DNA from: Macrostomum lignano | Taxonomy: Eukaryota | Length of the DNA stretch: 64,000 nucleotides | Direction of reading: 5' to 3' | Assembly (NCBI GenBank): GCA_002269645.1 | Contig: NIVC01000025.1 | Location: 544,417 to 608,416 of the forward strand | Shown: one piece after another, positions 26,509 through 64,000 of the stretch | Layout of the letters: each line of letters starts with the position of its first letter | Position numbering within the stretch: position 1 is the first letter of the stretch | The notes under the pieces: generated by a model | Told to the model about the DNA's origin: nothing | What the model saw: the letters and a program-made list of their open reading frames with translations, nothing else | Database searches by the model: none | Made by a program: the position numbers and the translations under genes

Positions 26509-46747
<20,239 letters not shown>

Positions 46748-47789: not shown

Positions 47790-50408
47790 TCACTGGGCCA
47801 GAGCACCCATGGGGTCCCAGGCGGGCAGCACGATGGGATCCTGTTCCAGCACGGCTCGCATCTTGTCGGTAAGGCGGGCCTTGTCGATGGCCACCTCGTA
47901 GACGTATTCGTCGAACCAGGCGTCCGTGACCGTCAGATAGCCTTTCAGTCCGTAATCCTGGCTCCAGGAGTTCTCAACTCGCCATTTGCCCGGGCTGCCG
48001 GCGGCGGGGTCAGGCGGGGTCACACCTGCGGAGAACAGGTATTGAGAGAACAGGTTCTCAATCAATATTTCATATGAGAAAACAGGTTCTCAATCAATAT
48101 CTCACATGAGAGAACAGGTTCTCAATCAATCTCACATGAGAGAACAGGTTCTCAATCAATATCTCACATGAGAGAACAGGTTCTCAATCAATCTCACATG
48201 AGAGAACAGGTTCTCAATCAATATCTCACATAAGAGAGCAGGTCCTCAATCAATATCTCACATAAGAGAACAGGTTCCCCTGCATCAAATATCTCAAATG
48301 AGAGAACAGGTTCTCAATCAAATCTCACATGAGAGAACAGGTTCCCCATCAACCTAATTCCCCCCAGGCCTTACCAGTCAGCAGCATAGCGTGAGTCATA
48401 AGCGAGTCCCCATAGAGCAGGCGCTCCTTCTTATCCATAGTGTTGAGCTGCAGCCCGCACAGCAGGTCAAGCCTGTGCAGATTGGGGTCAGCCAGACCGG
48501 CCGTCCTGCTGTGACCTTTGCTCACGTGCGACCCGAACCATACAGGCAGTCGATCGCGTAAAGCATCGGTTGCTAGGCGACGCAGTTCCTCTGATGGCAG
48601 ATTAACGTAGAGCACCCGTCTGGCGCCCTGCATATTGTTGAGCATGTCCACCGTCATTAGGCGATAGTAGGGATTGCGCGGATCGTTGACCAGGCATACC
48701 TGTTGCGGTTGAGTTTAGTTGAGGGGTGAGTAATCATATTGTCTCTGTAATAGCAGGTCAGATATGCTGAATTTAAACTGTGATGTAGCACAAATGTGTA
48801 AATAAGGACCATAGAATATTACTGGTAGGTAAGCCTTAGATCACCGATTCTAGATCAGACTCTAGATCATAGACTCTAGATCACGGACTCTAGATAATGG
48901 ACTCTAGATCATAGACTCTAGATCATGGACTCTAGATCATAGACTCTAGATCAGACTCTAGATCATGGACTCGAGATCATAGACTCTAGATCATAGACTC
49001 TAGATCATAGACTCTAGATCATGGACTCTAGATCATGGACTCTAGATCATAGACTCTAGATCATGGACTCTAGATCATGGACTCTAGATCATAGACTCTA
49101 GATCATAGACTCTAGATCATAGACTCTAGATCATAGACTCTAGATCATGGACTCTAGATCATGGACTCTAGATCAGACACTATAGATCACGGACTCTAGA
49201 TCATAGACTCTAGATCACGGACTCTAGATCATGGACTCTAGATTATGAGCTCTAAATCTTGAGCTCTAGATCGTGGACTCTCTAGATCATGGACTCTAGA
49301 TCATTGACAATAGATCACGAGCTCTAGATCACAGACTCTAAATCACGGCCTCTAGATCTTGAGCTCTAGATCTTGAGCTCTAGATCGTGGACTCTCTAGA
49401 TCATGGACTCTAGATCATTGACAATAGATCACGAGCTCTAGATCACAGACTCTAAATCACGGCCTCTAGATCTTGAGCTCTAGATCACGGACTCTAGATC
49501 TCAGACTCTAAATCACGGACTCTAGATCATGGACTCAAGATAATGAGCTCTAGATCATGGACTCAAGATAATGAGCTCTAGATCATGGACTCAAGATAAT
49601 GAGCTCTAGATCATGGACTCAAGATAATGAGCTCTAGATCATGGACTCAAGATAATGAGCTCTAGATCATGGACTCAAGATAATGAGCTCTAGATCATGG
49701 ACTCAAGATAATGAGCTCTAGATCACGGACTCAAGATAATGAGCTATAGATCACGGACTCAAGATAATGAGCTTTAGATCACAGACTCTAGATCATGAGC
49801 TCTAGATCATGGACTCAAGATAATGAGCTCTAGATCACGGACTCAAGATAATGAGCTATAGATCACGGACTCAAGATCACGAGCTCTAGATCACAGACTC
49901 TAGATCACGAGCTCTAGATCACAGACTCTAGAGCATGAACAATAGAAATCTGACATTAGAAAAGACTGCAGAACAGTCACCGAGGAATGAATGGATTTCA
50001 GACAACAGGTCTCACCTGAGCGCCAAGGTCAACCAGCGGTTTTACGTGCTCCTGATAGAACTGCAGTGGAGTCACGGGCCCGATGCGGCGATACTTGTTG
50101 CCACCGGCTGCGGCGTCGGCCTCGGCGGTGGCGCCTCCGGCAGAAGCCGCCGTGGCCGCGTACTCGAAGGTGAACTTGGCCGGCGGGCGGCCGATGGCGG
50201 CGCAGCAGAAGCGGAACAGCTCGGGCAGCAGGTCGGAGTCGATGTAAGCGCGAATCTGGTCGGCTGTCTGGCCGGCAGCGTGCAGATCCCGGATGCGCTT
50301 GGCGCTCTGCCGGTGCCAGGTGTTCAACCAGAAATTGAACTGCAGCGTCTCCTGCGAGACCAGCGGCTCAGTCCAGCACTGCTTGGGCACGACGCCGTGC
50401 TTCTCAAC
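47790..50408 (-). CDS. BLMH: Bleomycin hydrolase (peptidase C1B), last three exons; the 5' half with the catalytic Cys is not in the window
   Basis: Exons 50408-50016, 48699-48375, 48025-47790. Motifs VEKHGVVPK, LVNDPRNPY, PVWFG, SLMTHAM (His), WRVENSW (Asn), C-terminal LPAWDPMGALA. Confidence 0.92.
48050..48345. repeat. About 30-bp minisatellite (gagaacaggttctcaatcaatatctcacat), BLMH intron
   Basis: Direct reading. Confidence 0.9.
48840..49935. repeat. 14-bp minisatellite (actctagatcatgg) with 28-bp higher-order units, BLMH intron
   Basis: Direct reading. Confidence 0.93.
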
Positions 50409-51375: not shown

Positions 51376-52666
51376 AGTAGTATAGGAAAAGTAGGTTTGA
51401 GCGCAACCCATTTTGAAAAATCACAAAAAACAGATAAAAATCGACTAAAAACAGGTGAAAATTGTCTGAAAACAGTGATTTTAGTGATTTTTCAAAAGTT
51501 TCGAAAAATTGCTTTTTGCGCGATTTCGTGAGTAAAACCACAAGAAATTTTTGATTCGTGGGTTAAAATAACCTATTTTCAGGTTTCATCATTTCAAAAC
51601 TAGCATCAAATTTAATAATAGTCTTTTCTCCCATTGCATAACGCCCTTCAATAAGCCAATCTTACTAGCTTTGCTTTTAACGATCAGTCAGCTACCATCT
51701 ATGCATAAAAATTGTCCACTCGAGGCATACAATGCTTTTACAAAAGTCAATAATTTGCTCCTGCACATTCGCTTTGTCCCGAGGCTTTGAAATGGCTTTA
51801 ATGCTGTTCTAGATTTGTACTTAAAGATAATAGAAGACATTCAAGAACATGGAGCGCTAATTTAAATTTTTCGTGGCATGCATACTCGACTACTAGAGCA
51901 CTAACCGCAGCACTCAACATTTCTATTGGCTGCCAAAATTTCTGCCAAAACCAAAATTTTTGCCAAAATTTCTGCCAAAAAGTGTTTGGTTTTGGCATCC
52001 AATAGGAGTGGCTCGTGCAAATCTTTTGTGTTCACCCTCTATCTAGCTGTAAAAAAAGACATGAAGTGGGCCACGCAAGTTACAAACGAACAATGCTCTC
52101 GCGACCCTACCTACGGACGATTTCACTAACCCTTTTCTAAATTATGTATCTTAAAAATGGAACAAATAGCAGGAGAAATTCTCCTCAAAGCAATTTTTAT
52201 ATTGTGACTCAGCTTTAACGTCGTGCGAAACCCACACTGAGTGAAGCGTATGGTCAAATAGGCTCTCGCAGGAACTCACCAAACTAACTATACATAACCG
52301 CAGCACTGAACATTTCTATTGGCTGCCAAAATTTCTGCCAAATCTTGCGACCAAAATTTCTGCCAAAAAAGTTTTGGTTTTGGCAACCAATAGGAGCGTC
52401 TCATGCTAGTCTATTGTGTTCACCCCCTTTCTAAAAAGACACGAAGCGCACCACGTTACAGAATCATGCAAGATAAGAGACTATACAATAGGCGAACCAC
52501 TAGAGTATAATGGAGAAGGTCTTTTTTGATACTATAAGCACCATATCCAACTTAGTAAAAGACAAATCTACCTTTCATAGAACAGGCAGGTGTAGCAGCA
52601 GGCTCTATTGCTACAGCAGTTAACGCAGCCTAAGTCTGTAGATTACTTAAATTTATTTTTATAAAA

Positions 52667-54025
52667 ATGGCCTTCAGTAAACCATTATTTCTAGGTTCTG
52701 CATTGGATATTCAGTCAGCTATAACAAAACTACCACCCATCTTCGCCACTGGAAAATATCCTGGCGAATTTCATATTCCAGGGTATTCTTTCACTGGCCC
52801 AGGTACAAATTTAGACAAGAGACTCAATCCAATTACAGACTGGCCTCGGTATGATAGTCTACCAATTAATCCAATTGATTGGACTGCTTACTATCATGAC
52901 AAAAGCTATAGAGATGCTGAAAAGACGTCTTCAACTCCAGAGGAAGCCCTAGCAAAGAAGCATATTGCTGATGAAAAAATGATAGCTGATTTAGATGCTA
53001 TTCCAACCAGCGACTTGTCGGTAAAGGAGAGACTCATTAGAAATCTAGTAAAGCGTATTATCAATGCTAAAGTTCGGTTTGGATTAGGAATTCATACTCA
53101 CAACCCCAACAATTGTATAGACTGTCTAACAATTTATGGTAAGGGTCTTAGCTATGAAGATGCAGTAAAATTGCATAGGGAATACAGAAAGCCAAGAGTA
53201 TTTAGAAAAATGATTCACTATGCAAAAGACACAATTTGGCATGCAGATATCATTATCCTACCGCCCGAAAGAGGTTACAAATATGCTCTCACTATCATAG
53301 ATGGTTTTACACGTTACGCCTGGGCAGTTCCTTTGAAAACAAAGACGGGAGCGGAAGTTGCAGAAGCTTTCCAAAAAGTATTTAAGGAATCAGGAAGACG
53401 ATCAGAGAGACTTTGTGTAGATGAAGGCAAGGAGTTTTATAATCAGCATATGTACAAGCTATACTCGTTTTCAAAAGACAACATTAGAAAGAAGGATGAA
53501 AGGGGTGAATATATTAACAAGATGTTTTCAATTTATGGCGAGTCCAAGAATGCAATGATTGAGAGGTTCAATCGTACTCTCACAAATAAACTCTGGTTTG
53601 AATTTGATCTACAGGGTAATCAGAAGTGGCTCCACACATTGCCAGCTATTGTTGAAAAATACAACAACACAATCCATTCTGAGATTCTGATAACTCCTTC
53701 AGAAGCATCTAAACATCCTGAGCGAGTACCAAAGCCAACTTTCGAGTATTCAAATGAGAAACCAAACTTCAAAGTAGGTGACAAAGTTCATATCTATAGA
53801 TATAAGGAGCACTTTGAAAAGGGTCGAAGAGGATATTGGAAAATTTCAGAAGTGTTTAGGATAAAGAAAATAGTTTACTCCAATCCCATAACCTACATTA
53901 TTGAGGATGAGAATGGAGAAGAAATCATTGGATCATTTTACAAATCCCAGCTTCTACCAGCAAATTTTTCAACTAAAAATGAGCGCCTATCGAACAAACT
54001 GCAAACGGGCGAAAGGTCAGATTGA
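52667..54025 (+). CDS. Fusion ORF: parvovirus VP1u-like phospholipase A2 (PLA2X) plus retroviral-type DDE integrase, 452 aa
   Basis: PGYSFTGPG (Ca loop) and D..AYYHDKSY (catalytic HD); integrase WHAD, LCVDEGKEF, MIERFNRTL; C-terminal FKVGDKV...PITY...GEEIIGSFY. Confidence 0.88.
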   Translation: MAFSKPLFLGSALDIQSAITKLPPIFATGKYPGEFHIPGYSFTGPGTNLDKRLNPITDWPRYDSLPINPIDWTAYYHDKSYRDAEKTSSTPEEALAKKHIADEKMIADLDAIPTSDLSVKERLIRNLVKRIINAKVRFGLGIHTHNPNNCIDCLTIYGKGLSYEDAVKLHREYRKPRVFRKMIHYAKDTIWHADIIILPPERGYKYALTIIDGFTRYAWAVPLKTKTGAEVAEAFQKVFKESGRRSERLCVDEGKEFYNQHMYKLYSFSKDNIRKKDERGEYINKMFSIYGESKNAMIERFNRTLTNKLWFEFDLQGNQKWLHTLPAIVEKYNNTIHSEILITPSEASKHPERVPKPTFEYSNEKPNFKVGDKVHIYRYKEHFEKGRRGYWKISEVFRIKKIVYSNPITYIIEDENGEEIIGSFYKSQLLPANFSTKNERLSNKLQTGERSD

Positions 54026-54400
54026 AACGTCTGATTCACAACTACTAGCTGATAAAGAGGGTGAAGGAATTGGTGATATGATCAGTGGTGTCACAAACTT
54101 TTTATCAAATCATGGAAGTAAAATTGTGAGTGGAGCTGATGCAATAGGTAAAACAGCTACCACAGCGAAGAACATATTCGATGCGAAGAAATCATACAGT
54201 GACATGTCTAAAGCAGGTGAGGAACTGGAATATATTAAAAAGAAACGTAGAGAAAAGAAGCAAAGAAAAGAATGGAAGAAGAGCAACAGATAGCTTCTCA
54301 ATCAAATAAGGCTATTCAAGATATTGTTAAAAAGGCTCTAGGAACAGCAGAACAGTCTCAAGTGTCTTTGAGACAAGGCAATGGTTTGAAGAAATTCTGA
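53979..54400 (+). CDS. Putative virion core/membrane-active protein; one frameshift at about 54270
   Basis: ATG 53979. EGEG followed by amphipathic IGDMISGVTNFLSNHG and a Lys-rich stretch. The second frame MEEEQQIASQ...QGNGLKKF* joins by a single-base correction. Confidence 0.55.
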
Positions 54401-54408
54401 CCTTAAAA

Positions 54409-54861
54409 ATGAGCGAGAAAAACACTGAAGCAAGACTCAATCGATATGTTCGAGAGGGAAAACCAAGATATGTTACTGTAAATAAGCAAAAGCAATATCT
54501 TTCTAAAGAGAAGATTCGAGAATTGCAAGAGAAACAGAAAGAACATGAAGGTGGAATAATTCCTCTATTAGGCTTACTACCAGCAATATTGGGTGGTATC
54601 GGAGCAGCCTCCGGAGTTGGTACAATGATTGCAAAAAGTGTTAATACAGCCAACAATGCTAAGCATAATAAGACAATAGAAAGCATTGAACGACAAAAAC
54701 TAGAAGAGTTGAAAAAGGCTCAAGGGAGTGGAGTGTTAGTTGATGCGGCTAAAAGAGTCGAACAAGTACCCAGCGAAGCAGTCAAGTGGCTGCTAAAGAC
54801 TTTTAAAGTTGAAAAGGAGAAACAGGGTAATGGGATAATTCTTAGACCTCACGAAGCTTAG
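54409..54861 (+). CDS. Putative virion core protein with an adenovirus pX-like hydrophobic motif, 150 aa
   Basis: HEGG-IIPLLGLLPAILGGIGAASGVG resembles the adenovirus pX segment MRGG-ILPLLIPLIAAAIGA; further QGSG and QGNG motifs. Confidence 0.6.
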   Translation: MSEKNTEARLNRYVREGKPRYVTVNKQKQYLSKEKIRELQEKQKEHEGGIIPLLGLLPAILGGIGAASGVGTMIAKSVNTANNAKHNKTIESIERQKLEELKKAQGSGVLVDAAKRVEQVPSEAVKWLLKTFKVEKEKQGNGIILRPHEA

Positions 54862-54881: not shown

Positions 54882-56247
54882 ATGGAGAACAAAAAGGATA
54901 TACTGAACCTATATGAGGACAAAACTTTTAGCTTTTTCAAAAAGAAAGAAGACTATATTAAGATTTCTCCAACACCAGGTAGCACTAATAATCTCAATGT
55001 TGCAGGAGGTCAAATAGTTCATGAAGTCAATTCAACAGAGTCATACATTCTCATGTCAGAGGCATTCGGTTGTATAAAATACTCAATAACACAAAGAGAT
55101 AAACACCGACTTGAATACGAACATTACTCTAGAACATAATTGGCCTATGAGACTTTTCTCTCAACTCATAGTTGACATTGGAGGAACAAAGAAAGTCTAT
55201 AATGATCCTGGAGAGTATGACACAATCTTAAAGTCCGTAATGTACTCAAAATTGATGAATGAAGTTGGAGAAGCATACGGATGGATTCCAGACACTGGAG
55301 ATGCTGGGACTGTTTCTGATATAGCTCTAGCAAACAACGCAGATGCTGAAGCTGTGAGAACTGCAGCAATCGCTATGAAAAATAGACTCAATAAGAAGGA
55401 TTCGAATACTGGATACATTAGGAGGCTTGAAAATTATAACAATGTCACTAATGCTCCAAACAGAGGTGGAACAATCAAACTATCATTAACACCCCTCATT
55501 GGGTTCCTTGATTGGCAGAAGATTAGCAAAGGAATTAAATATAAATTCACATGGACAAGAAAGACTAACGATGCTGAAATTTTCTTTGGAGCTGCCGGGA
55601 CGGAAGCTAAGTTAACTATTAATAGCTTTGAGATTTGGATCCCTGCTATTAGTTTGTCACCCAGTGCTGAAGCAGCTTTTCTAAAATCACTCAACAAGGA
55701 CATTACAGTATCATTTCCAGAGAGGGTAACGGTTCCGCCACAACTCATTCAAGGAAGTCCATATACATGGAACATAGCCAACATCTCCAATATGCCACTT
55801 GCAATCTTTGTAGCTTTCAAATATGACGTAAACAACCCATCATATATAGTTAATGATCACAAGTATGTGTCTTACAAAACTGGAGCAAATGCAGTGAAAA
55901 TAACCCAGCTTCAAGTCAGATTAAATCAGGTGATGTATCCGAATGATTATGTTGAAATTGATCCAGTAGCTCAAGACATTCACAGAGCATATGAAATGTA
56001 CGAGGACATCTGCAGCCGTTTCGGTGTAACTCCACCATTTAATAAACAAGACTTTCTAACAATCTATCCAATATTCTGCTTTGATCTAACAGCTCAGGAT
56101 GAGTTTCTTGTCAAGAGTGGAGTGAATATTCAATTATTTATCAAGAAGTCAACTAATGTTGAGCTGACTGCTTTTGCACTAATTCTTGAACAAACAAAGA
56201 ATGTAATAAAAGTTACCAGTGAATATCAAATGACCCGCGTCGAATAA
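54882..56247 (+). CDS. Major capsid protein (double jelly-roll, Polinton PY/hexon-like), about 454 aa after correcting a +1 frameshift at about 55102
   Basis: ORFs 54882..55139 and 55111..56247 join on removing one A (gataaacacc). Motifs ITLEHNW...LFSQ, LIGFL, FEIWIP, LAIFVAF, LQVRLNQVMYP, YPIFCFDLT; size and position fit. Fold assigned by motif recall, not computed. Confidence 0.75.
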
Positions 56248-56268: not shown

Positions 56269-57040
56269 ATGCCCAAAGTAAAATTTCGGCATGATCCTAT
56301 TTTCCCTAATCCTCTTTTATGTTGTATTATCGGCGCTACAAATACGGGTAAAACATATTTACTATTCCATATTCTTACAAGTCCTGAAAAACTAGTTGAC
56401 TTTAATGAGTTAGTTTTATATGTTCCCAGAGCATCTCAAATGGATCCAGAGTATCAGTTTCTAAAATGGCTTTGAAAATGGTCTCCCACCTTCTCTTATC
56501 AACTCACTCTATCATGTCTACCAGGTGAGTGAGGATGCATCTCCTGAAGATATTAGACATATTTGTCGAGAGGCAGCCAACCCTGGTCGAGTGCAAAGCA
56601 CATCAGAAAATTCAGAAGTAATAGAGAAAATTCCTGTCACTCTTTCCCATACTCCAAATGAAGAAATTTTTCATAATGGACTAAAGACATGTGTGATATT
56701 GGACGATGTTTTGGGAGAGGCTAATCAAACATTTCAGGAAAGTCTGTTTCAGAGAGGCAGGCATGGAAACTGTTGTGGTTTTTATCTAGCTCAAAATTTT
56801 ACCAAACTAGATCGCAATACTGTCAGGGAGAATACGACATGTTACATAATCTTTAAACAAAAAGATACAAACTTAAATCACATTGCTAGAAATATAGAAA
56901 CGAATTATGAACCCGCTATATTCAAGGCTAAATGTAGAGAGGCTTGGAAAAAGAAGTATGGCTATATCTATATAAATACAAGAGCTGATGAGGATGAGCA
57001 AGATTTGTATAAGGATGTTCTAACTAAAATCCCATTGTAA
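56269..57040 (+). CDS. FtsK/A32-like genome-packaging ATPase, about 256 aa after correcting a +1 frameshift at about 56465
   Basis: Walker A GATNTGKT, Walker B CVILDD, FQRGRH, LAQNF...RENT; frames join as cta aat ggc ttt gaa. Confidence 0.85.
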
Positions 57041-57042
57041 AA

Positions 57043-57772
57043 ATGACTAATGAATATATAAGAGAACTCATTAATTTAGCAAAGCAGCGAGAAATGTACA
57101 AATCCAGAAATGATGCTCAACGCTATTTGAAAATTGGAGAAGAGAGTTTATATGCAAGAGTGGCTCCATTAGCTCAAAAACCTGTCACAGAAAAGCTCGA
57201 TGAATTTATTGATGTCAATGCCAACCTTGTTGATAAACTTCAGAATCAAAAAGTTCCAGTTCCGCAATCAAGTACACCAAAAGGCCGATTTGAACCCCTA
57301 GAAGTATTTGACAAAATAATTGAAGAAATTGGAAAGATTCAATAACTCAAAGACCAGCGCCTAGTATACGGATTCAAAAAACTGATGCTGGATATATATT
57401 TGGATCATCTGTAATAGATGTTGAATTCCATGAACAAGGTCGAGACATCATTGTCAACGAATTTCGAATGCCATTTTCTGAAGATCTTGAAGAGTTGTTC
57501 AAAATGCCTAAAGTAACTGAAAATGGTGAAGAGCTGAAGCAATTCAAGATGCAAACATTGCAGGATTATGTTAACATCATTGAACATTGTAAAAATCCAG
57601 CGGCCAAATCAAGTGGGAATTATAAGCAAGCAGTAAGGATATTGAAAGATAATCCACCAGGATATCGAGTAAAACCGGGATCTGGACTCAGTGAAAGAGT
57701 GTTAACTTTATTAGCCGCCAAGCAGAAGGACATAATAATGTTGATAAAGAGCTAGCAGAATTACTTGCTTAA
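57043..57772 (+). CDS. Conserved Polinton hypothetical protein with two -1 frameshifts (about 57327 and 57726)
   Basis: 57043..57345 joins 57468..57755 through an open intervening frame (NWKDSITQRPAPSIRIQK...). Corrected C-terminus reads GSGLSERVLTLLAAKQ-GHNNVDKELAELLA*. Confidence 0.55.
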
Positions 57773-57774
57773 AA

Positions 57775-58562
57775 ATGGAAAAAGAAATAGAAAAAGTCAA
57801 CATCCTCTTGAGTAAAAAGTTTCAACGCACATTTGACTTCTTTTCAATTAAAAACCCATTTCGACAAACTCTAGGCACTCCTATAAATTTGTATGAAGAT
57901 CGAGAATACGAAGCTGGTATAAAAAAGTTTGCAGTCTTTGATGCTATTAACAATATTGAAGGAGGCAATAATGAGTTGCGATACTCGAGGGATAGTGGTA
58001 GAACATGGAAAAAATAAAGATTCAAGCGGGTCTTGGGAAGTTAAAAGTCTGTCAAGCGAGATTCAAAGATTGCTAACAGCTGCAAATGATTGGAAAGAGG
58101 GGGCTATTGTTTTCAGTGCAAGCCTAGACACGCGTAGAGTTGAGTTACGGTTAGCCACAGATTATCAAGTTGATTTCAGGGATGCACATTCCAATAACTT
58201 TAGAAGACTGTTGGGATTCAATTCGGAAGTGTATTTGAAACCATTTGAGAGAGCTCCAAATCCAGCTCGGATAGACGGAGCTAGAAGTGCGATCATGGTT
58301 CGTTGTCTAAATACAAAGGGGGTTTATCACTGATCCAGCTAATGGAAATCATTTAATTGATAAGCAAATACTTCTTTCAATTCCATCGTTCTCTGTCCCA
58401 ATGGGAAGTAAAATTATTCAAGAGCCCGCAAATCCTGTGTACCTACCACTAACTACAAACATGTTGAGCACATTCGACTTTGTCATCGAAGATGAGTCTG
58501 GTGTTCTATACGACTTTGATGGCGAGGAAATATTTATAAATCTTCACATACGACAAATATGA
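57775..58562 (+). CDS. Minor capsid (penton-like, Polinton PX) protein, about 262 aa, three frameshifts (about 58012, 58030, 58320)
   Basis: Reconstruction: PINL...YEAGIKKF...INNIEGGNNELRY...WKKIKIQAGSWEVKSL...LLGF...IMVRC...GSKIIQEPANPVYLPL...DESGVLYDFDGEEIFINLHIRQI*. Confidence 0.7.
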
Positions 58563-58571
58563 GTGTTAAAA

Positions 58572-59003
58572 ATGAGCGAAGCTGAGACATGGAATGCATT
58601 TAAACAAAAGTTTGGGACTGACACTACGACTAATATTGATCTGATAAATTGGGCAAAATATCTCAAGTTAAAACCATTTCGCTATGCCATGAGAGATGAA
58701 ATTGTTGATTTACCACAGTATGGTTACTTTATGACAAATATTCACACTTCGAAAGAACGGGGTATACATCATTCAGCTATATTTTCAGCTCCTGATAAGG
58801 TTTATTTTTTTGATTCCTATGCACTACCGCCCACACTGGAAATTATGGAAAAGTTTAATCACACAAAGAATAGAATATGTGGAGACATGGAAGAACAAAT
58901 TCAAACTTTTGATAAGAAATATTGTGGTCAAATGTCGCTGTACTTTTTACACCGAATCGATAAAGGAGATAGCTATAACGAAATTTTGCAGCAATTAAAA
59001 TGA
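58572..59003 (+). CDS. Adenain/Ulp1-like maturation cysteine protease
   Basis: N.....RGIHHSA (His), YFFDSYALPP (Asp), IQTFDKKYCGQMSLYFL (Gln, Cys). Confidence 0.85.
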   Translation: MSEAETWNAFKQKFGTDTTTNIDLINWAKYLKLKPFRYAMRDEIVDLPQYGYFMTNIHTSKERGIHHSAIFSAPDKVYFFDSYALPPTLEIMEKFNHTKNRICGDMEEQIQTFDKKYCGQMSLYFLHRIDKGDSYNEILQQLK

Positions 59004-60408
59004 GTTACAAGAATACTGCCAATCAATTTGGTTACTCGTCAAATTCAAATGATATAGCACCTGGAATAACAATAGCGTTAGCTGATGATCGATACATCAA
59101 TGAAAATGAAGGATATAAGAGAGAGGAAATAGATAATTTATTGTTAGCAAAGAGAAATGTTTCAGACTCTTATTCAAAGGAAGATAGTGACGCAATGAAT
59201 ATCACCATGCTACAATTAATTGACGATGCTCATGGGCGCGTAAACAATGTCTACACAAAAACCGAAACTGACACTAAGATGTATTCTAAAACTGAGATTG
59301 ACACTAAGATGTATTCTAAAACTGAGATTGACACTAAGATGTATTCTAAAACTGAGATTGACACTTTGTTAGCAGAATGGCAAGGTACTGCGGGAGGTAC
59401 AGAGAGTTCGAAATTAGTCAATATTCTTTCATTACTGACTTCAAACGCTTCCCATTCTGACATGAAAGTGACCGCTTCTCATAACTCTTCAGCAGCATAT
59501 CATGTTGCAGATTCAAACCCAGCTTCAGATTGGAGCAGTGCAGATGACTCAGACAAGTGGATACGATTTCAATTTTTGAAAAGAGCTAGGAAAGTTGTAG
59601 AGATAAAGTTGGAAGGAGAGGTGTGGCCTGGTTGGTCTGTTAGTGTGAGCCTAAATGGAACAAACTGGACACCTGTTGAACAAAGTGCACCCATTGAACT
59701 ACGAAGGGCAATGCACATCTTAGGAAAAAAATACCCAATCCCTCATATTATTTCCATTATTCTCTTAATTTTTCTGGTTCCGTAAAGCTTACAAAAGTTG
59801 AATTACTTGAGAGACAAACAGTGGTTAATGATTTAGTGTGGCCTATAGATAGACTTCAAGCTGTACCAAAGCTATACGTAGACAATGCACTTGAATCAGT
59901 GGAGCTGCGACTAAGGCGGGGACTAGGTTTCAAATCTTATACAGGATATATTCCCTCACTAGCAACACGTCAAAACTATAGAGAAAGGGGTTTCAATGTA
60001 GCGTCATCAGGAGCATTTGAAACGTCAGATAATTGGGGTTATATAGTATCTAATTCAGAATGGGCATCGAGGAATGAACCCAATTCTTACATTGAAGTAC
60101 AACTTCCCGAGTCTATTCAAATTTGGAAATTCGGATTGAAAGGAACCAAAGCAGTAGGTAGTGAAATTATAAAAAATCAACCAAAAAGTTTTATTCTGAA
60201 AGGGAGCAATAACAAGAGAGACTTTAGGAATATTTTTTCTACCGAAAACGCTGGTTTAGTTCCTGGAGTCATGAAATATTTTGAAGTAGCTTCCACCGAA
60301 AAATTCTCTGTTTATAGAGTGCATATTAATTCAGCCACTGAAGGATCAACCGTTCTTATTGTTTCAGGCTTTCAACTTTATCCGATTTTAGACATAATCG
60401 CCACATAA
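59000..60408 (+). CDS. Putative fibre/receptor-binding protein: Y.K.E.D stalk repeats plus two F5/8 type C (discoidin)-like domains, about 469 aa with one -1 frameshift at about 59698
   Basis: YSKTEIDTKM repeats (30-bp unit, about 59255-59365). The alternative frame from about 59702 (KGNAHLRKKIPNPSYYFHYSLNFSGSVKLTKVELLERQTV) runs without a stop into ORF 59821..60408. Confidence 0.6.
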
Positions 60409-60410
60409 AA

Positions 60411-61151
60411 ATGAATGAAAAAAATGAACACATCTATCCTGTGGTTGAGCTGCATGAAGCAGATTTGAGGGAGCGGGACTATTTCAATCAGAGAAAGGGT
60501 GAAATCAAAGGCAGTATTGAATGCATTACTAAAGATCTTACAATTTATAGCAAAAAGGTAAAAAAGTACAAACGGCAAAGTAGCAGGATAAATTGGATCA
60601 ACATTGTGACAGGAAATGTAAGTCTCTTGGCTGCTACAGGAATTGGCATAGCAACATCGATACTGACATTGAATCCCTTAGTTATTGGAGTAGTAATCGG
60701 GGCAATGAGTGGTTTTGAAGCTGTAAAATCCACGTCGTTGTTTGCAACTGTGAAAATTCATTGCCAAAAGCAGAAGGCAAAATACATTGTTCTCAGAGAT
60801 CTGGCAAATCAATATAGAGAGAGATTGTATATTTACTCCCAAAAAGCAGTTGATGATTATAGATTAACTCTTGAAGAGGTTCAAGCAGCTGCTGCAATTT
60901 ATTCAGAATACAGAGAAAAAAGAGATCAATTGTTAGACGCCTGTGTTGCGCCTGAAGAAGTTAACCATTCGGAAGTCGTTGATAAAATCCTCAAAGAGAG
61001 TAGACTTGGTCATTCAGCGAAGGAAAAAATTAAAAAGGAATTACTAGAAAAAGATCTGAGAGAAAAATTGGGTCTAGCTGATAAGCCAAAAGAGTACTCG
61101 GCAACACTCAATCTTCAATCAAATGCTCCAAGTGCACCTCCCTACAATTAA
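60411..61151 (+). CDS. Coiled-coil membrane protein with a hydrophobic hairpin and C-terminal PSAPPY, 246 aa
   Basis: Intact ORF; hydrophobic segments IVTGNVSLLAATGIGIATSIL and LVIGVVIGAMSGF; ends SNAPSAPPYN. Confidence 0.75.
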   Translation: MNEKNEHIYPVVELHEADLRERDYFNQRKGEIKGSIECITKDLTIYSKKVKKYKRQSSRINWINIVTGNVSLLAATGIGIATSILTLNPLVIGVVIGAMSGFEAVKSTSLFATVKIHCQKQKAKYIVLRDLANQYRERLYIYSQKAVDDYRLTLEEVQAAAAIYSEYREKRDQLLDACVAPEEVNHSEVVDKILKESRLGHSAKEKIKKELLEKDLREKLGLADKPKEYSATLNLQSNAPSAPPYN

Positions 61152-61484: not shown

Positions 61485-64000
61485 TTATTTGAATCCATGA
61501 GGATGTGTTATAATTCCATTGGATTCAATGTATCTTTTGTCATCGAAAGGACTAATAGCCTTCTTATTTTGTTCTATTAAAGTCATGTTATGCTTGTCTG
61601 ATCTAAGGCTATACACTTTCCTATAGACTGGTTCGTTATAATCAAGTAGTATATTTCTATAGTCATCATATTGTACATGATGCTTCACTGTTGACTTTGA
61701 GATTCCCTTTAATTTTTTCTCTTCCTTCCCTTCCTTTTGAGTGCTGACATAAACTGTTTTAAATGAATATGCTTTCGATCTTAGAGCGGTTACTTCTGTC
61801 ATTATGCAATCATATTTTGCCAATTCATCCTTGAATGTTCCCAGCTTTCCACAATTATTCATATCATGTAAATCAATCGGAAAATTTTTAGTATACAGCG
61901 ACAAATCGAAATGCTCCTTCATCTGAGCAATGTCTTTATAAATATTTTCTGTCTTTATATGAAGAATGAATGAGTCGGTGTCAGAGGTAACAATCTCAAC
62001 ATTATCCCCCCATTTGGACTTGAAAACTTTGTAAAATGTTTCATACATATGCAATTTCGAGAGATCCAGAATTGCTTGTCCAGCGTATGTTGGCTTTGTT
62101 CCAAGAGGGATATTCTTAGGTCGCTGGTGAATGCAAATTAGATTTTCATTGAAGATTTTGAAGTCTATGAAATCTGGCTTGGATATTATCTTAGATATCT
62201 CATCCTCACTTGTCAGCAACTCAAATCGCTTTCTCTTTTTAACATCCTCCATTGTCTTGCCAAAGATGCTTACATTAAGCATTTTGAACTGATTGTCTTC
62301 GAACTCAATTTTTGCTTCTTTTGCCTTCTTTCTTTCTATCGTATTAAACTCGATATACTCCTTTAACCATGGCTTTTCATTGAATGAAATCGTCCTATGT
62401 ACTTTTGTCACTTTCAAGCCCATCTCTTCATAGAATCGCAATAGCTTATGATGTACGATATATTTTGTTTTATTTTTTAAATTAAGGATCAATTTAGGAA
62501 CTTTTCCAATCTTTTTCATTTCGACTTCTAGACATCCTTTCTGATATTCACTCAATTCACTTTCTGACACAGTTGTACTTTCAGGTGCTAATGGGAAGGC
62601 ATACGTTTTCTTTTTTGATTCTTTTGTATATTCAAGATCACATTCAACAAGACAGCCCCGTCCTTCAGGAGGATTTTTATAATAGTTGGAATCAGCTTCC
62701 CATTTAAAGTCAGAAAAAGGAAGGGGTTCCAACATACTATAACCATAGAGATTTGTACAATCAACGTAAAGTAAGTAGGAAGTTGGTTTTTCTAAATCAT
62801 AGCCTGGAAGATAAGGATTATTTGCCTTTACATATCGTGACCCTAGAACTCCGCTAAATCCACCTCTTATTCCACTATCAATCATATGAATCATATCGAT
62901 ATCCGCCAGCAAGTCTAACTCAACTTTACTTTTCTTCAACCCAGCATTCCAACTCAATCCTGGTGCTGAGAAGCATCTGGCTGGATCAATCTCAAAGTGT
63001 TTCAGGAAGAATGTTCTATAGCGTTCGAATACATCTGCTAATAATAGAACGTCAACCTTAAGATACAGCATCATATAATCCTCCAAATTCTTACAATTAA
63101 AAGTTTTCCACATTTGTTTTGCAAAATCATATTCATCTGAAGAAATGTCTTCACCTTTCAACCTCGAGTAAAACTCTTTCAATGGTGGTAACTCAGTTTC
63201 TGCTAATCTTCCAAAGCTTCTGATATACTCATATGGGAATACACCCTTGCGCTTAACATATTGAAAATCGCTGTCGTTTTTAAAGTATTTCTTTGTTATG
63301 ATGAAGTCTTCATCCTTCAGGGACTTTGCGCAGATATCCAGCGAGGAAGCCAAGAACCTGTATGAATCTAGGAACCTCAGTACTACTTTGTTACATCCAA
63401 ACTCGAGAGAAATGTACTCTTCAGAAGTTTTAGATAGTGGAGGAAATAATTTATCCTCCATGGTCTCTTTGCTCTTTAAGTGTGTCACTAAGAAGTGAAA
63501 GTCATAGTGGGATCCATTCTGGAAGTAGATTGGGATTACTCGCTTCTTACTCTCGAGAGCATTGCAGGATTTACAGGCAGCCCCTCTATATTTGCCACTA
63601 TAGTGACAATGTTCTCTTACCTTACCTAGCTTAAGTGTAAAGTCATTTTTACAATTCGCACATTTTTCAGCCCTGTAAAACTCTTTCCATTGTTGCTTTG
63701 TGATCTTATATTTACTTATATTATTGCTCTTGTTCAGACATTTTTTGCACCAAGATTCTATAGTAACTTTACTGTCAATTTCCTTCACATGCACCTTCAT
63801 ATCTGGAACCATATCAAACTCCTTCTCGCATATGTAGCATTGTTTAGCCTTACAGAAAGAAGCCTCCTCTTGCGCTGTCAAATTATGATTAATATGCTTA
63901 GGCTCCTTCAGACCATTCTTAATTTGTTGATAAATTTCAACCATTCTATCAACATATTTTTCCTTGGCATCTGTGCCACAATATCCTTCATACTTCGATT
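61485..64000 (-). CDS. polB: Protein-primed family B DNA polymerase with an endonuclease VII-like Zn-finger region; N-terminus beyond the window
   Basis: The frame is open to the window edge (SKYEGYCGTDAKEKYVDR precedes Met 63944). Motifs CYIC, CANC...EHCHYSGKYRGAACKSCN, NGSHYDFHF, FLDSYRFL, KGVFPYEY, DVLLLADVFE, YVDCTNLYG, KMLNVSIFGK, SDTDS. Confidence 0.95.
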   Translation of the reverse strand, partial: SKYEGYCGTDAKEKYVDRMVEIYQQIKNGLKEPKHINHNLTAQEEASFCKAKQCYICEKEFDMVPDMKVHVKEIDSKVTIESWCKKCLNKSNNISKYKITKQQWKEFYRAEKCANCKNDFTLKLGKVREHCHYSGKYRGAACKSCNALESKKRVIPIYFQNGSHYDFHFLVTHLKSKETMEDKLFPPLSKTSEEYISLEFGCNKVVLRFLDSYRFLASSLDICAKSLKDEDFIITKKYFKNDSDFQYVKRKGVFPYEYIRSFGRLAETELPPLKEFYSRLKGEDISSDEYDFAKQMWKTFNCKNLEDYMMLYLKVDVLLLADVFERYRTFFLKHFEIDPARCFSAPGLSWNAGLKKSKVELDLLADIDMIHMIDSGIRGGFSGVLGSRYVKANNPYLPGYDLEKPTSYLLYVDCTNLYGYSMLEPLPFSDFKWEADSNYYKNPPEGRGCLVECDLEYTKESKKKTYAFPLAPESTTVSESELSEYQKGCLEVEMKKIGKVPKLILNLKNKTKYIVHHKLLRFYEEMGLKVTKVHRTISFNEKPWLKEYIEFNTIERKKAKEAKIEFEDNQFKMLNVSIFGKTMEDVKKRKRFELLTSEDEISKIISKPDFIDFKIFNENLICIHQRPKNIPLGTKPTYAGQAILDLSKLHMYETFYKVFKSKWGDNVEIVTSDTDSFILHIKTENIYKDIAQMKEHFDLSLYTKNFPIDLHDMNNCGKLGTFKDELAKYDCIMTEVTALRSKAYSFKTVYVSTQKEGKEEKKLKGISKSTVKHHVQYDDYRNILLDYNEPVYRKVYSLRSDKHNMTLIEQNKKAISPFDDKRYIESNGIITHPHGFK

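Follow-up and report, generated by a model that had tools for sequence, protein, structure and literature searches.

The first gene of an endogenous Polinton/Maverick element (adintovirus) in the Macrostomum lignano genome joins a phospholipase A2 (PLA2) to an rve integrase in a single reading frame. The fusion is real, conserved among relatives and already annotated; it represents a known but under-analysed architecture. We consider it probable that the fusion is a cleavable virion polyprotein, which would be packaged through its PLA2 part and cut by the element's own protease, with the PLA2 then aiding entry. All positions below refer to the window, the 64,000-nucleotide stretch of DNA analysed here.

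The fusion ORF occupies positions 52667..54025 of the forward strand and encodes 452 aa (52 kDa) without interruption. A preliminary description, made from the letters of this DNA, had quoted PLA2, G-x-G and integrase motifs within one uninterrupted frame, and all of them were located: GPG at residues 44-46 (nt 52796), H77-D78-x-x-Y81 (nt 52895), K135-V-R-F-G139-L-G141 (nt 53069-53089), G158-K-G160 (nt 53138), and D194, D252 and E299. Pfam assigned the N-terminal half to PF08398 (residues 34-110, E 1.3e-8, 35.4 bits against a cut-off of 23.9) and the C-terminal half to PF00665 (rve; residues 186-262, E 7.1e-10, above the curated cut-off). The predicted structure of the full-length chain (pLDDT 84, pTM 0.60) consists of two well-formed domains connected by a low-confidence link at residues 141-155. 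Since no Met occurs between residues 105 and 182, the integrase would be made here only within the fusion or via splicing. An internal start of the integrase was thereby ruled out for the window copy; a linker Met is present in 14 of 78 aligned relatives.

A search with the full-length fusion protein found 409 proteins, and 79 of the best 120, which were inspected, matched both halves at 32-79% identity. To remove the bias of this ranking, a second search was ranked on the integrase alone. Among the best 120 of its 311 matches, 66 carried a PLA2 with the HD motif, 12 a partial PLA2, and 42 no PLA2, the last group including a protease fusion and integrases that truly stand alone, besides truncated forms. 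We aligned the window protein with the 77 of the first 120 matches that resembled full fusions (78 rows in all). The catalytic residues D71, H77, Y81, D102, D194, D252 and E299 are kept in every row, and D78 in 77. By these sequence comparisons the fusion, whose conservation the preliminary description had proposed to check with both halves, is a family trait and no quirk of the window copy. It is accordingly far-fetched to explain the join by misassembly, or by two neighbouring genes being read through neutrally in a decayed copy. The copy does have several further genes that are split, and single read-throughs do occur (integrase plus next gene in P0051); the abundance of fused homologues down to 32% identity nevertheless refutes such an origin for the family, two independently annotated genomes carry the fusion, and the window copy offers no internal Met at which a separate integrase could start.

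An integrase tree was built from 80 of 161 near-full domains, after 12 unclear rows had been dropped and the rest thinned at 72% identity. The 42 fused rows fall into different supported groups within an open fork, with 9 changes. A grouping that gives the PLA2 fusions a single origin, together with five nested and probably truncated rows, was not rejected (AU p 0.28; group chosen post hoc). A GTDB scan yielded 51 integrase loci with PLA2 in none, and the integrases of the 15 displayed loci, which have another type of N-terminus (a ~50-aa N-terminal domain), served as outgroup. The GTDB loci L001-L050 lie on short contigs of bacterial and archaeal MAGs, many of them in one Ignavibacteria bin; they encode integrases of Polinton or retroelement type and are most likely eukaryotic or viral contamination. 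Three-part proteins were also seen, with DUF5679 ahead of the PLA2-integrase, GG or G-x-G between the two, and in some cases a chromodomain (P0069, P0073, P0076, P0082, P0090, P0094, P0105 and P0115). A cluster look-up for 10 homologues returned uninformative names.

The PLA2 domain (52763..53083, forward strand; residues 33-139) comprises the G44-P-G46 calcium loop, D71, H77-D78, Y81 and D102, and ends with a helix at residues 119-139. The proposal that it is a VP1u-type PLA2 is borne out: H77, D78, Y81, D102 and the calcium loop are features of that type, PF08398 scored above its cut-off, the PLA2 profile aligned with AAV VP1 (E 4e-4), covering GPG, H-D-x-x-Y and A-D, and the matches to predicted viral structures included PLA2 domains of parvovirus, densovirus and entomopoxvirus origin. 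The model of the PLA2 alone reached pLDDT 87. Its best match among solved structures in both searches was rice PLA2 (Z 7.6 and 8.3, 91-93 aligned residues, rmsd ~4, with 4.2 at Z 8.3), a middling match for a helical domain and not far above background. In the calcium loop, 45 of the 78 fusions retain the second Gly, so that some fusions may be poor lipases; GPFT and GPNT variants account for 21, while the window copy has the full GPG.

The integrase half (53162..53968, forward strand) belongs to the rve integrases with a short N-terminus (the 'ELH' type); it has D194, D252 and E299 and a beta-rich C-terminal domain. It had been described as an intact D-D-E integrase, in agreement with PF00665, with the triad in 78 of 78 rows and with the fold matches of the fusion model, which include foamy virus, MELD virus and mavirus integrases, the latter two at the top. 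Stand-alone members of this integrase type begin a few residues before the ELH motif, and the fused integrase likewise does without the N-terminal domain that the other Polinton integrase type carries. Pfam found no chromodomain (PF00385) in the window fusion protein; some fused relatives have one (e.g., P0082 and P0091). The adintovirus integrase of Buck et al. (2024) also carries a C-terminal chromodomain, unlike the window integrase.

The junction between the two halves holds the evidence for processing. The candidate protease site, K135-x-x-F-G139-L-G141 (53069..53089, forward strand), has a predicted cut at L140|G141. K135 and G139 are kept in 78 of 78 aligned proteins and G141 in 70; in terms of site classes, 70 rows are GX|G, three GG|X and five neither. 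At 0.74 this motif is the best-conserved stretch measured, and at 0.17 the linker after it is the worst. The linker (53090..53161, forward strand, with a CxxC insert at 53114-53125 and a second G-x-G at 53138-53146) varies from 5 to 75 aa across relatives. Its pLDDT falls below 50 at residues 141-149 and 151-155, which places the candidate site at a helix end ahead of a disordered linker. Predicted structure and alignment together thus put a motif of the GG|X or GX|G kind into a linker that is exposed. The mavirus protease cuts both of these motifs, and the suggestion that the glycine motif fits the sites of clan-CE viral proteases gains real support from this agreement, as does, at the level of sequence, the cleavage reading itself. 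Two observations tell against cleavage: at the main site P4 is K in 62 of 78 rows and R in seven, which departs from the hydrophobic P4 of the adenovirus consensus, and the mavirus protease left two GXG sites uncut.

The preliminary description had pointed to two G-x-G motifs. Whereas the first is family-wide, the second, G158-K-G160, occurs at that column in only 3 of 78 rows and is tied to the CxxC insert, being kept in 6 of 6 fetched proteins that have it. This second site (I-Y-G-K|G) fits the adenovirus consensus, including the hydrophobic P4. In the window (53114-53146), a CxxC peptide of ~17 residues lies between the two G-x-G motifs, an arrangement confined to the nearest relatives; cuts at both sites would set this segment free as a small peptide. 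A zinc-binding HHCC linker domain was considered and ruled out, as CxxC is found in only the six fetched proteins and is missing from a relative with 76-79% identity.

The motif also proved not to be peculiar to the fusion, since K-x-x-x-G-x-G is general to Polinton PLA2s. A search with the PLA2 alone gave 393 matches, 150 of which were listed; of these, 89 show a motif that can be pinpointed, and the other 61 end earlier or escape the pattern. GX|G was found in 63 of the 89, GG|X in six and neither in 13, and seven stop right after G-X, although the register of one of the seven is unclear and some may be contig fragments. Among the matches listed, unfused relatives that continue beyond the motif keep the second G in 44 of 56 cases. 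Ends at G-X form the largest single end-point bin (binomial p 0.009 for 6 of 38), and such PLA2s are the product expected of a GX|G cut. GG is almost confined to rows without the second G (Fisher p 0.007 and 8e-5, significance that related rows inflate). A motif that also ends unfused PLA2s fits a general PLA2 release site, but it equally fits a structural end, because G139 caps the last helix. GG or G-x-G, in either form, is likewise found upstream of the PLA2 in 59 of 78 fusions and is absent there from the window copy. Seven parvoviral PLA2s readable in a published supplement, compared by eye without alignment, show the conserved K followed by no x-x-x-G-x-G. That they keep the Lys without G-x-G favours, in this by-eye comparison, reading the motif as a protease signal.

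G-x-G was said to recur in the neighbouring core ORFs, and counting supports this. Across 19 ORF pieces of the element there are nine G-x-G-hydrophobic motifs against 2.3 expected, with nine or more in 1 of 2000 shuffles. The small ORFs nearby account for five of the nine, against 0.5 expected and with 0 of 2000 shuffles reaching that number (a grouping made post hoc), and two of the sites in core ORFs are at the same place in relatives. In the small core-like protein directly downstream of the fusion (53979..54293, forward strand), G-E-G-I opens a stretch that is amphipathic by its hydrophobic moment, and P0051 carries this motif at the same place (E 7e-7). Pfam gave no match for this ORF and the ESM Atlas only unnamed clusters; we presume a pVI-like role. 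One more G-x-G-hydrophobic motif lies in the 54251-54400 piece. The pX-like core protein (54409..54861, forward strand) contains GG-IIPL and two G-x-G-hydrophobic motifs; its match (E 1e-7) is to that part of the pX-PLA2 fusion P0216 which bears PF05829. The 3' end of the fusion ORF (53969-54025) adds 18 residues beyond the usual end, at which 55 of the 78 aligned proteins stop, and overlaps the downstream ORF by 47 nt; P0051 reads through fully from the integrase into a homologue of that ORF.

The element itself is a block of raised AT content; it directly borders on a host minisatellite, starts near 51376 and extends beyond the window end; only its left end (51376) lies within the window and the right end is outside. 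The probable left end (51376..52666, forward strand) is non-coding and begins AGTAGT, a 5'-AG terminus being a hallmark of Polintons, which are further recognised by terminal inverted repeats and a 6-bp target duplication. It contains an internal duplication ~390 nt apart and local inverted repeats. At 51900-52455 a ~150-nt block occurs twice, ~390 nt apart, each time with facing ATTGG/CCAAT around an inverted repeat; these blocks are possibly tandem promoters or origin elements. The host DNA at 1-51375 is dense in long minisatellites and includes GH31 glycosidase exons (~39660-40990) and a peptidase C1-like gene (~48350-48660); exons such as these amid repeats suggest by themselves a eukaryotic, probably animal, host.

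Downstream of the core ORFs, all on the forward strand, lie a double jelly-roll MCP split over frames (54882..56247; PF21738, E 1.7e-13), an A32-like packaging ATPase in two frames (56269..57040; PF04665, E 2.6e-4, below the cut-off, with Walker motifs by eye), one or more unassigned ORFs in two frames with one G-S-G-L motif (57043..57755), and a probable penton in three frames (57775..58562), which we assume from its resemblance and position to be penton-like and which has no significant Pfam match. The adenain-like cysteine protease (58572..59003, forward strand) is an intact ORF in which H66/H67, D81, Q111 and C118 were recognised by eye. The ESM Atlas placed it at 0.97 and 0.95 to two Peptidase_C5 clusters, in which 13% and 62% of members carry the family; no Peptidase_C5 match was found in Pfam and no match among solved structures. 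One or more fibre-like proteins with F5/8 type C domains follow in two frames (59000..60408, forward strand; PF00754, E 2.4e-6 and 0.0033). The ORF at 60411-61151 is hydrophobic in its middle and matches SLATT_1 weakly (E 0.027), and SLATT domains appear in a figure key for Polinton-like genomes in the accessible part of one preprint (bioRxiv 2026.06.19.733378). The putative protein-primed PolB (61485..63998, reverse strand) continues beyond the window end; its PolB motifs were identified by eye, and Pfam reported only Endonuclease_7 and FYVE and no PolB family. Endonuclease VII is also listed for the Sf Maverick PolB in the portion available of PMC5803895. The fusion, the protease and the visible part of PolB are whole, while the MCP, ATPase, 57043-57755 ORF, penton and fibre-like genes are split through either decay or sequencing error. 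Since the capsid, ATPase and penton genes are affected, the window copy may no longer make particles. From the PLA2 and pX-like genes we infer a place among the Alpha adintoviruses, or group 2 Mavericks.

A parallel family came to light among the homologues. Two matches carry an adenain-like protease where the PLA2 would be, and a search with that part returned 17 proteins (P0106, P0117 and P0388-P0402), PF00665 being listed for 16. An adenain-type glycine site, (M/L/I/V)-x-G-G or (M/L/I)-x-G-x-G, stands directly before the integrase in all 17. Their match to Peptidase_C5 is weak and below the cut-off, and the 58572 protease in turn matches the profile of the family weakly (E 0.001); some members have a chromodomain. 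In the tree their integrases, including one truncated row, form a clade of their own (support 100/98). Because this clade is separate, the integrase type has been placed behind a virion protein via a glycine site at least twice.

According to the polyprotein reading, the precursor would be made late as a single chain. Its PLA2 part, as a membrane-active core protein, would bring the integrase into the assembling particle. There the 58572 adenain-like protease, to judge from the motif, would cut G139-L140|G141 and, in the CxxC subclade, also K159|G160, releasing a 16-kDa PLA2 and a 35-37-kDa integrase. By the example of parvovirus VP1u, the free PLA2 might help the particle breach the endosome, and the released integrase, its N-terminus now resembling that of stand-alone relatives, would insert the incoming genome.

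The same junction could instead belong to a fusion that is packaged and stays in one piece, a tethered two-domain protein in which K-x-x-x-G-x-G does no more than close the Polinton PLA2 fold structurally, as a helix cap and turn. We regard this as unlikely. G139 does end the last helix in both models, the motif is family-wide, including unfused PLA2s and the published PLA2X, and the shortest linkers measure just 5 aa. Yet the six or seven relatives that end at G-X indicate that the domain does not need the second G, the second G swaps with GG and not with other turn residues, and the motif is met again in unrelated core proteins as well as where protease and integrase join. A further alternative makes the PLA2 a repurposed, non-catalytic N-terminal domain of the integrase, serving as an oligomerisation, targeting or packaging tag in place of the usual one. 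The fused integrases do lack the ~50-aa N-terminal domain seen in the 15 displayed GTDB loci, and the calcium-loop variants in 21 of 78 rows suit a domain without catalysis; the invariance of H77, Y81 and D102, with D78 nearly so and the GPG loop complete in the window copy, speaks for an enzyme. Many integrases of the same type moreover stand alone with no N-terminal domain, and a 15-fold variation in linker length argues against a fixed interface, so that we rate the tag as improbable, more so than the uncut protein.

The preliminary description had left room for the fusion being novel. It is not, having been labelled in a published supplement: the accessible entries of Buck et al. 2024 (PMC11071296) include 'Adinto15303_PLA2-Integrase' (BK066759) and 'Adinto6405_PLA2-integrase' (BK066529), thus at least two PLA2-integrase labels among at least 59 PLA2 places, next to PLA2X-Adenain, Adenain-PLA2 and Adintoc3-PLA2X fusions. 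Among the supplement entries examined, the label 'Adenain-Int' had no match, and the main text, as far as available, does not discuss the fusion. No main-text account of a PLA2-integrase fusion, its cleavage or a protease-integrase fusion appears in the accessible parts of the open-access papers; fusion and cleavage go undiscussed in those of PMC8502044, PMC5803895, PMC3671162, PMC11161782, PMC7805220, PMC6048507, PMC4642659 and PMC12220804, and of bioRxiv 2022.07.28.501842, 2026.10.13.758929 and 2026.06.19.733378. Prior annotation caps the surprise of the fusion; what is added here is the protease-site evidence and the parallel protease-integrase family, neither of which was found in the accessible parts of the literature searched.

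At stake is whether and how Polintons make integrase-carrying particles. The broader proposition, for which we see the arguments as evenly balanced, is that Polintons whose integrase lacks the N-terminal domain package it in the manner of Gag-Pol, behind a PLA2 or a maturation protease, via a glycine site cut by the viral protease, and that this evolved at least twice. If so, the fusions would be direct genetic evidence that Polintons deliver integrase inside particles, and the interchangeable GG|X and GX|G sites would lay out the entire course of Polinton core maturation. Were cleavage to hold, a dsDNA virus would be using the polyprotein route known from retroviruses. A cleavable PLA2-integrase precursor would also allow Polinton maturation and protease specificity to be tested at the bench with two proteins and no virus.

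In retroviruses, the rve integrase enters the particle within the Gag-Pol precursor, which is cut by the viral protease. The window element differs in being a dsDNA virus with a cysteine protease and no frameshift, and its carrier is a lipase, not a capsid precursor; the likeness to Gag-Pol is thus a functional analogy only. The VP1u PLA2 of parvoviruses aligns with the window domain at the GPG loop, H-D-x-x-Y and A-D and matches its fold, but it is fused to a capsid protein in viruses with no viral protease, and the G-x-G end is absent from the seven readable examples. In the available portions of the literature, the PLA2X of Alpha (Mayetiola-class) adintoviruses, or group 2 Maverick-Polintons, belongs to the same PLA2 family and has the terminal motif (PMC8502044; 'CAP' in PMC5803895), a membrane role in entry has been proposed for it (PMC8502044), phospholipase is common in group 2 Mavericks (bioRxiv 2026.06.19.733378), and Polinton lipases have been proposed to act in endosomal escape (PMC4642659; PMC8502044). 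PLA2X has a pX-like domain behind its PLA2, whereas in the window the integrase takes that place and the pX-like part forms its own ORF (54409-54861). As far as their entries extend, Adinto15303 and Adinto6405 share the architecture, in which an ELH-type integrase follows the junction K-x-K-(L/F)-G-x-G; the window copy differs from them by a longer linker, the CxxC insert and the second G-x-G. For mavirus, the accessible text reports a protease that cuts GG|X and GX|G and leaves two GXG sites uncut (Born 2018; PMC6048507), and virions in which the rve integrase is found together with a hydrolase that is split near GK|G (PMC6048507). The mavirus proteins, as described there, come from separate genes and the hydrolase is of the alpha/beta type, not a PLA2, in contrast to the window fusion; the likeness is that in mavirus both an rve integrase and a predicted hydrolase are virion-borne.
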